A stretch of 53,420 bases of DNA, the filler included, from Basidiobolus ranarum (taxonomy: Eukaryota), in the NCBI GenBank assembly GCA_040143965.1. It is 3 parts of 3 records of this genome, joined end to end, with 100 filler letters (N's around TTAATTAATTAA, not from the genome) between each part and the next. Parts side by side here need not be neighbours in the genome. Positions count along the whole stretch, not along the records: positions 17,858 to 35,591 come from JASJQH010007169.1; 2 more parts are not named here. The stretch is one strand, 5' to 3'. This document shows, in pieces, positions 18,750 to 31,391 of this stretch (position 1 is its first letter; each line of letters opens with the position of its first letter). The notes below the pieces were generated by a model, which worked only from the letters and a program-made list of their open reading frames with translations, did not search any database and had not been told where the DNA came from. The translations under genes were made by a program, and so were the position numbers.

Positions 18750-19815
18750 ATGTCGGAAGAAAACCATACAGAAGTTCTTAACAGTGAACAAGGTACCAAA
18801 GTATTCATTGGTAACTTGCCTTTTCAAACTACTCAAGAACAATTGAAATCCGCTTTCGAGGGTTATGGAAATATGTAAGCTTCATCTGTTCGCTTGAAGT
18901 TGGATCTATTATTAACTTTTGTTTCTCTTGGATATTTAGTAACGAAGCTACTATTCTTACACGCGGTAAACGTTCTTTGGGTTACGGTTTTATCAACTTT
19001 GAGAAATTAGACGATGCCAAAAAAGCTGTAGGTGAAAAGGACCAATCAGAGTTAGAGGGTAGAGTTTTGAAAGTGGAACTTGCTCGTCCGATGAAGCGTG
19101 ATTCGGAACATGCTAAACAAGTTGAAAATCACACCAACGAAGGTGAGGATGACTCAGCTGACAGAAGAGGAAAGGAAGGTGCTCGTGGACGTGGAAGAGC
19201 TAGACGTGGTCGTGGTGCTGGTAGAGGTAGAGGTCGTGGCGCTAACGAGGAAGATGTTGTACTGGTAAATAATGAAAAGAAATTTAATCATATCGAATTT
19301 CCATTCATTTTATTTGATTTTAGAGCTCTAAAGCCCCCCGTCGTTTCTCTAACAAACGTGATGGTGCTACTGACTCTGCTCAAGACACTGAAAACGGTGT
19401 TGCACAAGTTAGTGAAGAACTAGGTAACCTTGATCTTTCTGAGCAATCAGTTGAAGAGGATGACAGAGCACCCAGAGCTAGACGTGGTCGTAGATTTGGC
19501 GCCAAGCCAAAGGCTCCTCTCGGTGCTCCTTCCACTCAGAGTTTATTTGTGGGCAACTTGCCTTATAGTCTCGAAGCCTCTGCTTTGGAAGGTCTATTCC
19601 CTGACACCAAAATCACCAGATCCCTGATCGTCACCTCCAAGACCGGCCGCTCCAAAGGCTTTGGATTTGTAGAGTTTGAGAAGGAAGAGGATCAAAAGAA
19701 GGTGTTGGAAGAAAACAAGGAGCTTTCTTTGGAGGGCAGGAAGCTTCTCATCAAGGTCGCTCTAGGAGATCCATTCGATTATACCAACTCCAATGAAGAG
19801 AAGGAGGAGCAATAA
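18750..19815 (+). CDS. RRM-RGG-RRM RNA-binding protein (Sbp1/Rnp24-like), 3 exons
   Basis: Exons 18750-18874, 18940-19264 and 19324-19815 with GT-AG introns give a continuous frame. RNP2 VFIGNL / LFVGNL, RNP1 LGYGFINF / KGFGFVEF, and a central RG-rich tract. Confidence 0.9.
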
Positions 19816-21650: not shown

Positions 21651-22132
21651 CTGGCATCGAGTCAGGATAGATATTAAATATGTTGCTACAAATCCATCTT
21701 AATTAAAAGGGAGCGAAGTCGGATTTTAAACACACATGATATTGAGTGTGGAGTGCAGCTTAATCTAAGATCATTTACAATGCTAAACATTTATGCGTAC
21801 CATAATCATTCTTCCTGGCTAGTGTTTACTCAAATGGTCGTGAGGACAGGGGTTTATTTGTTTATTGGCCTCTCGTTTGCAGTAAGTTTCCTATGGGATC
21901 GACTTTTCATACCAATCTTGGCCGATTTTATGGCTTACATCTCATGTAGCCCTGAACTAAAACTCTACTTTGACCGATGTAAGTTAAGTAAATACAAGCT
22001 TTCCTTACATTCGCATTGACCTTCGATGAATTCGAGTGAACTTATTCCCTTCTTCACACCTTTCCGAAATCTATAAAGGAGTTGGACAAGTATCTTTCTA
22101 GAAATCAGAATTGAAAGTTTACTTGAAACAAA

Positions 22133-23416
22133 ATGGAGTGGAACTTGCAACAGAACATCTATTACCCATTAACCATCATCTGGAATTTGATTTTAATCAT
22201 TTCAACACTTCTTTTTATATCCCAACATCACTCACCGTCCATCAGATATCGTAGCATTACGTTATCTGTTCTAATGGTCATAGCAAATTCCTTGGTCACC
22301 ACGCTTTACTTGGGTCGTGAGCCAGATGTTGAGAGGTTTCCCTGCTTTCTGAATTTATGGATTTCCTCGATCGGGATGCCGCTATGGCTAACTGCGGTTG
22401 CTGGAAGGTTCCTAAGATTGGCATTTTTGTACCATTTCAGTCAAGCTAAACTGGTTGGCAATACGAGTGGAGAGAGATACGTTGATATGGTATCTATCGA
22501 GAAGGGGAGTACCTCTGCCACCTTGATCTTGAATGAAAATTGGTATGCGAAACATCGCGAAAAGTTCACCACGAAGTTCATGGTGAAGGTGATCGCTGGG
22601 TGCATAGCTTTTCAGGTTGCTTTAACATTGATCGTACAAGCGTTCACCACAAGATTTCAAATCACTCCAAAGATGGCCACTGGTAACTGTTTAGTAGGTT
22701 GGGAATTCATCCCAGTTTGGGTTACCTCCGCGTTCTACGTATTTATATTATGCCCTATGTTTATCACTTGGGTACGTGGGGTTCAGGATGCCTATGGGAT
22801 CAAAAGAGAACTGATCGCTGATTTCACTTTGGGTGTATGTGCTTTTCTATTATACGTCGTATTTGCCGCCTTTCCTCAATTACACAGGGTTCGTCTGATA
22901 TTCCCTGCAGCTCATTGGAGTGTTGTGGCCCTAATCATTAGCCACTTTGTCAGTATCATTCTTCCAACCATATACGCATTCAAAGGAGATCCTAAGGCGG
23001 GGAAAACCACTAGTTTGGCCTCGTTTGATTCCATGGTAGAAGATCCACAACAATTTGAGGTTTTCAAAAGATTCACTCTCCGAGATTTCAGTGTGGAGAA
23101 TGCACTATTCTACGAAAGAATCATGAAATTACGAATGAAATGCCAAGATACGCCATACAACTCCGATGGTACTCTCAATACAGAATTGACCTATGAACTA
23201 ACTAACATCTATAATACATTCATCACCACTGGTTCTGAGTTCGAATTAAACCTGGAGGCTGCTACCATCAACAAGATCAAACAACGATTCCAGAGTGAGC
23301 TCCAACCAGATGTATTCGATCATGCTTTGATCGAAGTCAGGAATCTAATGTTCCGGTATACCTATCCACGATTTGTGAAAATGAATCGCAAAGCTTTGGA
23401 GGAAACCCAATTGTAA
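22133..23416 (+). CDS. 7TM receptor-RGS fusion protein (GprK/AtRGS1-like)
   Basis: Intronless 427 aa with about seven hydrophobic segments. IRYRS, FPCFL and DAYGIKRE motifs, and a C-terminal RGS box (FKRFTLRDFSVENALFY, IYNTFI..SEFELNL, VFDHA..EV..LMF..TYPRF). Confidence 0.9.
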   Translation: MEWNLQQNIYYPLTIIWNLILIISTLLFISQHHSPSIRYRSITLSVLMVIANSLVTTLYLGREPDVERFPCFLNLWISSIGMPLWLTAVAGRFLRLAFLYHFSQAKLVGNTSGERYVDMVSIEKGSTSATLILNENWYAKHREKFTTKFMVKVIAGCIAFQVALTLIVQAFTTRFQITPKMATGNCLVGWEFIPVWVTSAFYVFILCPMFITWVRGVQDAYGIKRELIADFTLGVCAFLLYVVFAAFPQLHRVRLIFPAAHWSVVALIISHFVSIILPTIYAFKGDPKAGKTTSLASFDSMVEDPQQFEVFKRFTLRDFSVENALFYERIMKLRMKCQDTPYNSDGTLNTELTYELTNIYNTFITTGSEFELNLEAATINKIKQRFQSELQPDVFDHALIEVRNLMFRYTYPRFVKMNRKALEETQL

Positions 23417-24046: not shown

Positions 24047-25873
24047 ATGACAACGATAAATAAAGTTAATATCGCGAGTGAGCTCACAACTCTCTTACCT
24101 AAAACCCTAATCGATGATCTTGATAGGTCTCCAGGCTCCAAAATCTGGTGGTCTGAATTCTATTTACTGTCTAAATCCGCTACTCCGGTAGTCCTTACAT
24201 ATTTGCTTCAGAATTCCATTCAGTTGGCAAGTATATTCTCCCTGGGTCATTTGGTAAGCTTGAATATTTTGTAACATGGTTTCCTGCTCTTTTGGCTAAC
24301 ATAATACACATTGTAGGGTGCCAATGGTACACGTTTCTGATATATTGCTAGTTATTGAAAAGATCCTAATATTGGATTTCTTTAGAGCTTGCCGTTGCTG
24401 CATTAGCAAATATGTTTGCTTCAGTTACTTGTTGGTCAGTTTCCATTGGTATCTCAACTGCACTTGATACACTGGGAAGCCAAGCTTACACCGGCTCTGA
24501 AGACCCTCATGCGCTAGGTATATATCTTCAAAGAGCTATCGGAATCATGGGGGTCATCTTTGTACCAATCTCCTGCTTATGGTGGAATGCCGAGTATTTA
24601 TTACTCTGGCTGAGACAAGATCCAGAGTTGGCAGCTCTCGCAGGTCAATTCCTAAAATGTCTATTGCCAGGGGCATTTCCTTTTGTTTGCTTCGAATGCA
24701 TCAAAAGATATCTACAAGCACAAGGTACCAATCCCATTGAAATAATTAGTCGATCCCTACTAACTTTCTATATGCAAAGGTATCATGCATGCCAGTACCT
24801 ATGTGCTACTAATCGCCAGTCCAATTAACATGATGACCAATTACTTGTTTGTCTGGAGAGAACCATTTAAACTCGGCTTTATCGGGGCCCCATTGGCCAC
24901 TTCTTGTACATATATCATGATGCTGAGTATGTTAATACTGTATATCAAGTTTGTTGCTGGTGGTGACGCATGGGGTGGTTGGAACAAAAAAGCACTACAA
25001 GGATGGTGGCCATTTTTAAAACTAGGTGAATATTTTCTTGACTATTGGGGTAAAGAATGGTCGCTAAGTTAACCTATCTATTTACAGCATTACCAGGCAC
25101 CATCATGATATGTTGCGAATGGTGGGCATTTCAAGTGTCCGGTTTGGCAGCTGCATATTTCGGTACCATTGCATTGGCAGCTCAGTCCATCGTCTTAACT
25201 AGTTGCTCATTATTCTTCACCATTCCAATCGGTAAGTAGTTTGACGAATACTGCTGGCGTGCTTGTTTTGGTATTGAGTGCTTCTCTCATAGGAATCAGT
25301 ATCGCAGCCAGTAACCGGGTTGGGAATCTTCTAGGAGCTAATCGACCCAATCATGCTCGATTAGTAGCGAACTGCTCCTTAGTCTTAGCCCTCTTGTTTG
25401 GTTTATTCAATTCCACAATATTGTTCTCATTAAGAAATCGATGGGGATATTTATTTAATGACGATGAAAAGGTCATTGCGCTGGTGGCGAAAGTGTTACC
25501 TATTGGCGCCATGTTTCAGGTAAGTGAATGTTGTTAAAATGGATGATTCCGGTTCCATAGTTGAACTTCAATATCGTTCTAGATCTTTGATGGACTCGCT
25601 GGAGTCACTGGTGGTGTTTTGCGTGGGCAGGGAAAACAAAAGATCGGTGCTTACTTGAATATAGTGGCATACTATCTGATAGCTTTACCAATCGGCTATT
25701 GGCTCGCTTTTACTCTCAATTGGGAGTTACCGGGTATCTGGTGGGGTCTGCTATTCGCTTTGGCATTCGTGGCGATTGGTCAATTGATTTCAATCCTCTA
25801 TACTAACTGGCATGAGGAGGCTAGAAAAAGTAGAGAAAGAGTTAATCTAGAAAATGAGACAGGGCTACTCTGA
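24047..25873 (+). CDS. MATE family efflux transporter (ERC1-like), 7 exons
   Basis: Exons 24047-24253, 24317-24326, 24386-24724, 24780-25025, 25088-25231, 25293-25519 and 25583-25873. MATE motifs GHLGANELA, ALDTLGSQAYTG, RYLQAQG, EWWAF, RVGNLLGA and LRGQGKQKIGA. Confidence 0.92.
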
Positions 25874-26059
25874 TTCCCATTCATATAATTAATACTAAAT
25901 CTTCTTGTTAATTCTATACTACATATATTATATTAAATGGAAATGTTGATTAAAATTCCCGCCATCAGTGATTTATTTCTTAGCTGTGTCAAATTCAAAC
26001 AATCTTGACTTCAACATTAATACTAGAAGTGTACCACTCAGGTTTGTCATCAGATTCAA

Positions 26060-26855
26060 TCAATTCTTGACTTTGACGTCGGCACATGAAGTATACCACT
26101 CGGGTTTACCATCACTACCGTTCAACTTCCATCTCCATTGGATGAGATACTCTCCGGGTTTACGATCTTTAGGAATCTTGAAGCAACCACCACAACGTGC
26201 CTTGTCAGAACCACCTGAGAAGCAATTACCATAATTTAATTTGGCAATTGTCCATTTGTTCATTTCCTTTTGGCTTGGATCCTTGGATGTTGGCTTGGGT
26301 GGCATATTGATGTAAACAATATTATTCGGTTCATGTTGGTGAGTCTTGGCAGGCCAGCGGACACATAGTTGTTGACCAGGTTTCTTTATTGCCATGCGAC
26401 CCCACTTGTTCTGTCCATAGGCTTTGCTAGCAGGATTTGCGCGGGTTTCATCCGATCCGACTTCCTCATTCTCTCCGTTCTTATAACGTTTTCCAGTAGA
26501 GCATGCGGGCCAGTTATCTGAGCAAACAAAAGGTTATTTAGAATATTATGATATCATTCAGTGTTACTACGGATATCTTACCAGGATGTGCCTCTGATTG
26601 CTTATAATGACGATTAGGCCAGTCACTATCCAATGTTCCAAAGGGCTTCTTGGGAGTAACGCTACCATTCTTCCCATATTTAACTGGGAATCTACGAGCG
26701 TATCCACGACATTCACCGGCATTATCATCGTAGCTTTTATTCTTTGAATTTTTGAAACGCCAGTCCAAACAATCCACCCATGAATGAGCTTCACTTAAGG
26801 AGACAAAGATAAGGAAAGCAGTCAAAGCTACGGACAAGATTCGAATGTTAATCAT
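26060..26855 (-). CDS. Secreted His1 protein with LPMO-like (histidine-brace) features, family unassigned; 2 exons, 243 aa
   Basis: Exons 26855-26582 and 26517-26060 (64-nt GT-AG intron) join two ORF-track fragments in frame. Signal peptide ends SEA, exposing HSWVDC. Later WPAKTH, PGEYLIQWRW and WYTSCADVKV. Confidence 0.8.
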
Positions 26856-28918: not shown

Positions 28919-29845
28919 TCAGTTACCACTCAAATATTGAGTAAAGAAGCTATCCAACTTCTTCACCGCAGGTCCAACATACTGTTCTTTATCATATAGA
29001 TCAATATGAGTGGCTCCATCTATCAAAAATAATTCCTTTGGTTCTTTGGCTTTCTTATATGCGGTTTCACTGAAGTAAAGGGTATCGGCATCAGTTCCGG
29101 CAATGAGAAGTAGAGGATGTGGCGAGATCAAATCCACATAGTCGAAGGCGGAGAAAGAAGCAAGTTGATCCAAGCTTCTAAAGACGTACCAGTTCTGTGA
29201 ATTAGGATGCTGCGCGCGCGATGTACGGTAATAATCTGTACCTTCGCGGAAGAGTGTACGAGGTGGTGCTGCCTTAGCTGCATCTTCAACAGTGTTGGGG
29301 ACTATATGCTCGAGACGTGGTGCTGCGCCGCGTGCTTCTTTGGTTCTTTCTTTACCAGCCTCCTCTAGATTCTTCTTTAAATCATCTGGAGATTGTGTAC
29401 CACCAAGACCTTCTCTGTACAGCTGTCCGATATCTGCAGCACTAATAGTAGCAACTGCTTTAATACGTCTCTCAGTTTGTGCGGTGAATGGGACGTAACC
29501 ACCCGCAGCACAAATTCCAAGAGCACCAATTCTTTCAGGATCCACTTGGTCTAATGTTGTCAAATAGGATACAGCAGACTTGAAATCTTCTGATCGAGCG
29601 GATGGATCTTCGAGGTAGCGTGGTTCACCTTCACTTTCACCTTGATATCCGGCATCAAATGTTAGGGCAATGAAGCCGAGGGAAGATAAGTGTTTAGCAT
29701 ACAATCCCGCAGTCTGTTCCTTCACACCTCCAAATGGATGTCCGACGACAATTGCAGCACGCTTCTTGCCACTGGAATCCGAAGGAAGGTAAAGTTCACC
29801 TTTGAGGGCAAGTCCATGACTCTGGAAAGTAACCTTTTGGGGCAT
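28919..29845 (-). CDS. Alpha/beta hydrolase, YcjY/PA2218-like
   Basis: Intronless 308 aa. HPFGGVKEQTAGLYA, FDAGYQGESEGEPR, nucleophile elbow GICAAGG (Cys), catalytic region DGATHIDLYD. Confidence 0.9.
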   Translation of the reverse strand: MPQKVTFQSHGLALKGELYLPSDSSGKKRAAIVVGHPFGGVKEQTAGLYAKHLSSLGFIALTFDAGYQGESEGEPRYLEDPSARSEDFKSAVSYLTTLDQVDPERIGALGICAAGGYVPFTAQTERRIKAVATISAADIGQLYREGLGGTQSPDDLKKNLEEAGKERTKEARGAAPRLEHIVPNTVEDAAKAAPPRTLFREGTDYYRTSRAQHPNSQNWYVFRSLDQLASFSAFDYVDLISPHPLLLIAGTDADTLYFSETAYKKAKEPKELFLIDGATHIDLYDKEQYVGPAVKKLDSFFTQYLSGN

Positions 29846-31391
29846 GATGGTTCAAATTGTTTAGATAAATCCAAGGACGACTCGTCTGCAGTTATATAGG
29901 TGCCAGTTGCAAAATCCGCTTTTACATAAGCTGGCCTTTTTTAGCACCTGGGATTGATCTTGCTGATTTGGTTTCACTGTATTTATGCGCTAGTTCCTAT
30001 CCTTCACCTAGGGAAGATAGTCTGCCGCAGTAACCGTAGTGACTCAGAAACTTTGGTTCAATCAGTAAGAAACGTCACGATTGACGCTATACTATTTTCA
30101 TGGACAAATACAAACCAAGCGAACAACATTAAAATTATTGTGGCATGAGTGCACATAATGAGGATAAATCAAAAATCTTGGGATTGTATTGACCCATTTA
30201 GGCTAAATCCAGAAAGATATTCACCCGCCATCATCCTGGTGTTGAATCCCACCTTAGGTAGCGTATTATGATTTATCAAATCTCACCAAATCTCACTTAC
30301 ACCTAAAACAAGTTTTAATGGCCTTTTTTTTGTTGACTCTAGAGTTAAAAGCAAAACATTCGAATAGATATAAACATTCATGTCGAAGTATTCTTATAGT
30401 GGTGTATATTTCACTGGATTTGGAAAGTGTTCCAAATAAACAAATCAAACTTATCCACATCTCGTGCTGACTGTTTCGCTCCTTGATGTACTCACCAACA
30501 CTACTGATATACTCAGTTTAGTCGTCTACAACTCTAGTAGAAAGTACAAAAACAACAAAAAGTATAATAAGCACTCTCTCAGGCAATCGATAATCTTTGT
30601 CATTAACATTTCGGGAGAGTATACTCGCCAATTGGATCGTACTCTCCGAATAATTCTGAAATGTTGATTATCTTCAAGATTGTAACGATACGAAGATTTT
30701 GTGAAGATTAATTATGAGAAGTGTAGTGTAAGTATATATTAATTTCTTCGATTTATTTTCTAATTGTGTAGATATATATAAGATTATATATTCATGTAGC
30801 AATGTGCGTTTTTCGATTGTTTCTTTGTTCCGTAACATGTTTATGTTTCTTTAGATAGCAAGAGGAACTGTCTTTATTGCGCGTCTTTATGCTATTATAT
30901 TTGTATTCAACACATGTTTGATCTACCAATTAAATTAACTACAAAAGGAGATCTTATACAATCATACTTCACTGAGATGATCCATTGGCTACGGTTCAGT
31001 TGATCTAGATATTTGCAGTATTGTTTCACATAGTAAATGGTCACCAACAAAAAAGGTGTTACATGGTTAAAGAGTATGGTTCCTTAAGATGTATACGGAT
31101 ATGTAACTTTATCTTGGAAATTTGAGGTAGTAGTATAGGAATATTCTTGTCATAGCTTTTCTTTCAAAGAAATGAATGTTGTTACGCAATCCAGTTAACA
31201 AAGAAAATAAGAATTACTTACTAAGAAAGTAACATTCTAAGATGTTGTGTTCTCAGAATAATATATATCTAAATAAGAAATAAACAATGTGCACGCAAGA
31301 TATATATACATAATTATATACTACTCTTCTACTTTCTATCTTCACATAATCTTTGCAACGTTAGTACTTACAAGATCCTCAATAATGAAAC

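Follow-up and report, generated by a model that had tools for sequence, protein, structure and literature searches.

Each lytic polysaccharide monooxygenase (LPMO) family has brought with it a new substrate or role, in the form of cellulose, chitin, starch, xylan, pectin or copper uptake. Judged by sequence comparison, auxiliary activity family 11 (AA11; AoAA11, 4MAH; AfAA11B, 9EXJ/9HDG; AfAA11A, 7P3U) is the closest known family to the gene described here. In AfAA11B the copper ligands are His1 and His61; all AA11 structures are said to have an axial Tyr together with second-sphere Glu and Asn, and the pairing of Tyr with Glu is described as confined to AA11 (PMC12186267). The window analysed here, a 53,420-nucleotide stretch made of three joined parts of the Basidiobolus ranarum genome (assembly GCA_040143965.1), contains a gene whose product is, with a probability of roughly 0.7, a secreted copper protein with an LPMO fold and a histidine brace that belongs to the uncharacterised DUF7492 family and lies outside the current AA families. 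Like the AA11 proteins, which are secreted fungal proteins of LPMO fold whose mature chain begins with His and which have a second, internal His, it has a leader-adjacent His, an internal His and the ...PG.Y.L.W.W...E.Y..CA strand pair, which aligns significantly and includes the shared Glu-x-Tyr. In contrast, the searches made found no AA11 counterpart for the N-terminal HSWxDC motif, for CxGYxR or WPAKNH, for the pattern of eight Cys, or for the long insert at residues 60-133, and the structural likeness to AA11 is no greater than that to AA9 or AA10.

Predicted fold and candidate copper site

A word-indexed search with exon 2 of the gene returned 50 proteins, of which 46 were used for the close-family alignment and profile; four short fragments (P0009, P0025, P0034, and P0050; 177-211 aa) were omitted. 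Wherever an unspliced protein was needed (AlphaFold2, Pfam), a deposited 243-aa B. ranarum model, P0001 ('hypothetical protein K7432_012774'), stood in for the window protein. The AlphaFold2 model of P0001, built on the 46-sequence alignment, has a mean predicted local distance difference test score (pLDDT) of 86.2 and a predicted template modelling score (pTM) of 0.83, and is a beta-sandwich of about 11 strands with a long irregular segment, at about residues 69-133, between early strands. Foldseek returned 44 matches to this model in the PDB at E ≤ 1e-3, and 36 of the 38 matches listed are LPMO entries. The best match per family was 4b5q for AA9 (4.6e-6), 3uam for AA10 (2.6e-5), 9hdg for AA11 (1.0e-4), and 7ze9 for AA16 (8.6e-4). 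Two of those listed are not LPMOs: NIS1, a Magnaporthe effector (3.1e-4, TMt 0.63), and a Wzt carbohydrate-binding domain. The model made for P0106, a distant family member from a protist (pLDDT 89.0), again matched AA10, AA9, AA11, and AA16, and additionally PmoD. Over the two models, the top matches were AA9 and AA10/AA15 structures (4b5q, 3uam, 5ftz, and 4oy7). The window protein is thus predicted from these models to be an LPMO-like beta-sandwich, of immunoglobulin/fibronectin-like type, that is near no solved family.

Conservation of the proposed metal site was assessed in 259 proteins aligned with hmmalign to the close-family hidden Markov model, counting in each column only the sequences that cover it. 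The counts that follow are from the 147 representative-library hits, the subset that was gathered without motif selection. Among these, His24 is present in 102/103, His151 in 135/136, and Tyr233 in 128/129, the remaining sequence having Phe, while Cys236 is invariant (129/129). Position 231 is Glu in 78, Gln in 16, and Asp in 11 of 131 sequences. In the close 46-sequence alignment, His151, Glu231, and Tyr233 are each found in every sequence, and His24 in 45, with a gap in the other. The invariance of His24, His151, and Tyr233 in an alignment underlying a broader family profile was not counted; its rows had been preselected by those same three motifs, so that invariance there is circular, and the counts from unselected hits replace it.

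The proposed first ligand, His24, lies directly behind a leader with a basic residue (Arg5), a hydrophobic core of 15 residues, and Ser and Ala at positions -3 and -1 (S-E-A before His24). Nearly all Met-started relatives likewise have a His at position 13-40, behind a hydrophobic stretch. The von Heijne (-3,-1) rule for signal-peptide cleavage is satisfied directly before this His in 176 of 179 Met-started relatives, compared with 23-72 of 179 at sites one to six residues upstream. A His that always adjoins the leader is what would be expected of an LPMO, and cleavage between Ala23 and His24 is putative.

The remaining elements of the site come from the C-terminal strand. A phmmer search of PDB chains with exon 2 gave AA11 at E 0.032, which is not significant, and aligned the Glu-x-Tyr strand to AoAA11 at the position of its Tyr140. 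The broad profile, searched against PDB sequences, reached AA11 alone (AfAA11B 9exj, 8.9e-8; AoAA11 4mah, 1.9e-7; 7p3u, 7.3e-6), in a match confined to about 50 C-terminal residues. In this match, E-x-Y-x-x-C-A of the family falls on E139-M-Y141-M-N-C-A of AfAA11B, such that Glu231 corresponds to Glu139 and Tyr233 to Tyr141. A sequence-only reading of the window, made before these analyses, had proposed an LPMO-type fold, a site made of His1, the second His and a C-terminal Tyr, and an LPMO-like terminal strand. The beta-sandwich model and its almost uniformly LPMO matches argue for the first of these, the near-invariance of these residues among homologues supports the second, and the third holds in that each position of the strand lines up with Glu-x-Tyr-x-x-Cys of the active-site strand in AA11.

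For the cleavage site, copper binding, site geometry, catalysis, and substrate, we infer the following arrangement. Signal peptidase would cleave after Ala23 and so make His24 the first residue of the mature protein. A single copper ion would then be held in a histidine brace by the amino group and imidazole of His24 and the imidazole of His151, with Tyr233 in the axial position below the copper. Glu231, two residues ahead of Tyr233, may act as the second-sphere carboxylate that places H2O2 or O2, as in AA11, and the long family-specific segment (about 60-133) may form the substrate-facing surface. In its reduced state the copper site would oxidise a glycan, for which chitin, chitosan, or another cell-wall polysaccharide would be the most plausible candidates.

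Relatives and placement among known families

Of the 50 proteins found with exon 2, four B. ranarum and two B. meristosporus sequences are paralogues; the others are from Mortierellomycotina or are unnamed environmental records. Basidiobolus has at least six paralogues, at 63-72% identity, and Mortierella also has several. When the close-family profile was searched against 1.84 billion cluster representatives, 418 matched at E ≤ 1e-3, with 183 of them reaching 1e-10 or lower and 47 reaching 1e-30 or lower. The distant matches retain the leader followed by HSW..C, the WPAKNH motif, and the C-terminal [E/Q/D]-x-Y-x-x-C. Taxa were assigned only from source names in named searches, and not from the 147 representative-library hits. 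On this basis, searches seeded with distant members added a stramenopile (Triparma strigata), chlorarachniophytes (Amorphochlora and Bigelowiella), and Heterolobosea (Naegleria lovaniensis and Willaertia magna), along with many transcriptome records, while occurrence in Ascomycota is indicated by one Atlas cluster label alone. The family is thus not confined to early-diverging fungi, where the sequence-only reading had placed it, and extends to Heterolobosea, stramenopiles, and chlorarachniophytes. A pattern-based scan with the close-family profile found no relatives in bacteria or archaea, at one genome per species; this is weak evidence of absence, and the family may be restricted to eukaryotes.

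The family was also presented as possibly undescribed, which holds only in part, as it is catalogued in Pfam as DUF7492 (PF24320) and its members already carry automatic LPMO-type names. P0001 scores 29.5 bits against the DUF7492 gathering cut-off of 27, and the precomputed database label is PF24320.2. An hhalign comparison of the fungal group with the DUF7492-type (Naegleria-like) group gave a probability of 99.9% (E 8.4e-32, 185 columns), in a match that spans from the leader-adjacent His to the C-terminus with both His and the Tyr in register. The GSDETRANP..KAYGG segment appears in this comparison as an insert of the fungal branch that is missing from the protist branch. Since the match extends over the full domain, the window protein is a divergent member of DUF7492. 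The Basidiobolus and Mortierellomycotina branch sits at the edge of what the Pfam model captures, and most relatives scanned fall under its cut-off. Among 52 representative hits scanned with Pfam, DUF7492 was the only recurring catalytic-domain family, mostly under its cut-off.

Matches to other Pfam families remain below threshold. AA9 (PF03443, cut-off 27.8) gave 21.5 bits with P0001, over residues 98-242, and 23.4 bits with exon 2 of the window. The [E/Q]-x-Y-x-x-C spacing of the family also fits AA9. LPMO_10 was detected in 3 of 73 proteins scanned (P0044, P0120, and P0146), at sub-threshold values (E 0.008-0.12, 13.5-17.3 bits), and BIM1-like (PF20238) had no match to P0001 at E ≤ 1. In terms of names, UniRef labels several members 'Chitin-binding type-4 domain-containing protein', and the nearest clusters in a protein-language-model Atlas bear the automatic names 'Chitin-binding type-4' and 'Lytic polysaccharide monooxygenase' (0.95 and 0.94), followed by LPMO_10 (0.91), DUF7492 (0.88), and BIM1-like (0.87), the last being a lead only. 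AA18 was considered as a home for the family; two papers mention it, either with a citation of Santos et al. 2025 or next to CelOCE. CelOCE is reportedly a bacterial enzyme of non-LPMO fold. Literature searches, whose scope excluded most subscription journals, found no paper on DUF7492/PF24320 or on the family under Basidiobolus, Mortierella, or protist names, and no characterised member was found.

Catalysis, copper binding, and competing explanations

Several observations weigh against the interpretation favoured here. The Foldseek matches have query TM-scores of 0.24-0.44, root-mean-square deviations of 4-14 Å, and identities of 10-20%, and with TM-scores this modest the fold call rests on agreement among the matches rather than on close superposition. 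The crude (-3,-1) rule is equally satisfied two residues further on (A-H-S|W; 178/179), the Ala and Ser being conserved, and a rule that is met at both sites cannot by itself fix His as residue 1. P0001 clears the DUF7492 cut-off by a small margin and over residues 195-242 only, and exon 2 of the window alone scores 23.4 bits. None of the curated LPMO models claims the protein, and LPMO_10 (PF03067, cut-off 23 bits) has no match to P0001 at E ≤ 1. The close-family profile found nothing significant among PDB sequences, with AA11 at E 0.21-0.34 and the best LPMO at 0.21. Many relatives are membrane- or GPI-anchored (glycosylphosphatidylinositol), which would equally fit a role at the cell surface or in copper handling. 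Finally, copper proteins that are LPMO-like but lack oxidative activity occur widely among fungi, according to two sources (PMC13353379, PMC12186267), so that a histidine brace does not of itself imply catalysis.

That last point leads to the strongest of the competing explanations, in which the protein would scavenge, buffer, or deliver copper at the cell surface, in the manner of X325/Bim1, and would cleave no polysaccharide. The X325/Bim1 proteins have an LPMO-like brace fold, as is predicted for the present family, and a spread beyond biomass degraders, and X325 has an additional Asp ligand. The architectures of many relatives in the present family would suit a role in surface handling or transport better than one in degradation. 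Many end in a transmembrane helix or GPI-like hydrophobic tail, and linkers rich in Thr and Pro, with hydrophobic stretches at the C-terminus, are seen in others. For instance, the protist relatives P0114, P0133, P0140, P0204, and P0238 have an LPMO-like ectodomain, then a transmembrane helix, and at the C-terminus a WW or GYF_2 domain that would be cytosolic, an architecture that is not known for LPMOs. P0079 (784 aa) combines thrombospondin type 1 (TSP1) and EGF-like modules with a hydrophobic C-terminal tail. The occurrence of the family in amoebae and algae, which are not known polysaccharide degraders, and the BIM1-like cluster in the Atlas point in the same direction, and together the anchoring and the breadth of taxa favour roles other than catalysis. 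In contrast, the window protein itself is a single bare domain that ends ...CADVKVKN, five residues past the last conserved Asp, with no anchor, GPI signal, or hydrophobic tail, and it has no BIM1-like Pfam match. Unlike X325/Bim1, it also keeps the second-sphere Glu/Gln position of catalytic LPMOs, which the family retains in the proportions given above. Additionally, the relatives P0200 (9.1e-11) and P0240 (1.4e-7) each have a CBM_1 module, which is a cellulose-binding module of fungal type, and fusion to CBM_1 is an architecture typical of polysaccharide-active enzymes. A purely copper-binding role is on balance unlikely, and sequence cannot decide between an enzyme and a copper-binding surface or scavenging protein, although the Glu/Gln position and the CBM1 fusions would favour catalysis. 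The chance that the protein is a true polysaccharide-oxidising enzyme is put at a little short of even.

A second explanation is that the protein is a very divergent chitin-active LPMO of AA11, or of another existing CAZy family, that can already be classified there, in which case there is no new family. AA11 is the sole significant sequence link to solved structures, the Glu and axial Tyr pairing is the one said to be unique to that family, and the 'Chitin-binding type-4' names in UniRef fit with it. The link is nonetheless restricted to the C-terminal portion of a domain of about 220 residues, about 170 of which have no detectable AA11 counterpart, and falls to non-significance with the close-family profile. 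No PDB LPMO chain aligned to either the N-terminal HSWxDC...CxGYxR region or the WPAKNH motif, and similarity to characterised AA11 domains was not found over the full domain. Structurally, AA9 and AA10 equal or outscore AA11, and Pfam keeps DUF7492 as a separate family, with LPMO_10 absent or sub-threshold. Membership of AA11 or another existing family is therefore improbable. The sequence-only reading had suggested that the protein may lie outside the AA families, and this stands to the extent that no Pfam AA model accepts it, while the C-terminal relationship to AA11 is detectable and qualifies the claim.

A metal-free secreted beta-sandwich of carbohydrate-binding or effector-like type, in which the N-terminal His is incidental, would accommodate the NIS1 and Wzt matches and the unproven cleavage at His24, but it is very improbable indeed, given that LPMOs dominate the Foldseek matches listed and that precisely the three residues of the LPMO metal site stay near-invariant from fungi to protists, which would be difficult to account for if there were no such site.

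The histidine-brace copper protein of LPMO fold thus remains the preferred interpretation, and the window protein is probably a member of a new LPMO-type family. The family is of interest for its intact predicted brace, its AA11-like Glu/Tyr second sphere, a range that takes in zygomycete fungi, amoebae, and marine algae, and its CBM1-fused and membrane-anchored forms. It would offer a tractable target in which to look for an oxidative activity not seen before or for a role of copper outside degradation, with practical value that hinges on biochemical proof, and the several paralogues in Basidiobolus and Mortierella suggest that it may matter in cell-wall remodelling or in feeding on chitinous material. 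A more extended proposal, which is tentative, is that the whole is an unclassified pan-eukaryotic LPMO family that would form a new CAZy AA family, at most sister to AA11, with a brace that is ancient in eukaryotes and is deployed in two ways. If so, the secreted deployment would comprise free enzymes in Basidiobolus and Mortierellomycotina and CBM1-fused forms in some relatives. The membrane-tethered deployment would comprise protist ectodomains joined to cytosolic WW/GYF adaptors, and would represent a cell-surface copper-redox activity tied to intracellular signalling or trafficking and not to biomass breakdown.

Gene model and genomic context

The gene is real and conserved, and a chance open reading frame (ORF) is rejected. 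When donors at 26560-26600 and acceptors at 26500-26545 were scanned, the pair defining the 64-nt intron was the sole GT..AG pair that gave an open frame of more than 200 aa. P0001 matches exon 2 and the junction at 100% (P0001 residues 92-243), and 45 homologues in the close-family alignment span the junction without a gap; the splice is supported because P0001 agrees at the junction and the homologues align there gap-free. These results confirm the single intron and 243-aa product that had been proposed from sequence. The spliced protein also contains all of the motifs quoted at that time (...VSLSEA|HSWVDCLDW, WPAKTH, PGEYLIQWRW, and EWYTSCADVKV) and the eight Cys (C29, C49, C97, C143, C190, C200, C203, and C236), none of which is in the leader, and the gene is indeed split in the ORF list, into stop-to-stop ORFs of 108 aa and 157 aa. 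The coordinates of the gene, its parts, and its neighbours are given in Table 1.

Table 1. Positions in the window of the LPMO-like gene, its proposed functional residues, and nearby features
Feature	Position	Strand	Description or basis
LPMO-like gene	26060..26855	minus	Two exons; 243-aa product including leader
Start codon (ATG)	26855-26853	minus	
Stop codon (TGA)	26062-26060	minus	
Exon 1	26582..26855	minus	Codons 1-91 and base 1 of codon 92; leader and N-terminal mature domain
Intron	26518..26581	minus	64 nt; GTAAGA...TTTGCTCAG; phase 1; GT..AG
Exon 2	26060..26517	minus	Remainder of codon 92 through codon 243, and TGA
Signal-peptide-like leader	26787..26855	minus	Codons 1-23; MINIRILSVALTAFLIFVSLSEA
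His24 (CAT)	26784..26786	minus	Codon 24; proposed His1 and first brace ligand; conservation
His151 (CAC)	26339..26341	minus	Codon 151, in WPAKTH; proposed second brace ligand; loop after model strand 141-147
Glu231-Trp232-Tyr233 (GAG TGG TAT)	26093..26101	minus	Proposed second-sphere Glu and axial Tyr; AA11 alignment
Degenerate 3' copy	26003..26052	minus	Last ~16 codons of the gene; after the stop, in another frame
MatE gene (MATE efflux transporter)	24370-25873	plus	Multi-exon; Pfam MatE on three ORF pieces
RRM-domain protein	18815-19815	plus	Pfam
RGS-domain protein	22127-23416	plus	Pfam
Dienelactone-hydrolase/PETase-like alpha/beta hydrolase	28919-29851	minus	PETase match below its cut-off

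A tblastn search with P0001 aligned exon 1 at 26855-26583 with 95.6% identity. P0001 and the window protein differ at four positions, all in exon 1 (F14L, I16V, D43N, and N81S), and two of these are within the leader. With four differences in exon 1 and an identical exon 2, the window stems from another isolate, haplotype, or assembly.

The neighbouring RRM, RGS, MatE, and dienelactone-hydrolase-like genes gave no functional clue and have no obvious link to the LPMO-like gene. The MatE gene is convergent with it, with about 190 bp between the two 3' ends. Besides the degenerate 3' copy, tblastn with P0001 found no further copy of the gene in the window. This 3' copy was detected by a repeat search as a 50-nt direct repeat, 74% identical to 26065-26114 at a spacing of 62 nt, and was also found by tblastn, in which P0001 residues 222-242 aligned to 26066-26004 with 62% identity. 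It reads ...KPEWYTSSINVEVKIV, in which the conserved Cys is missing, and is probably the relic of a small tandem duplication that lies in the 3' untranslated region.

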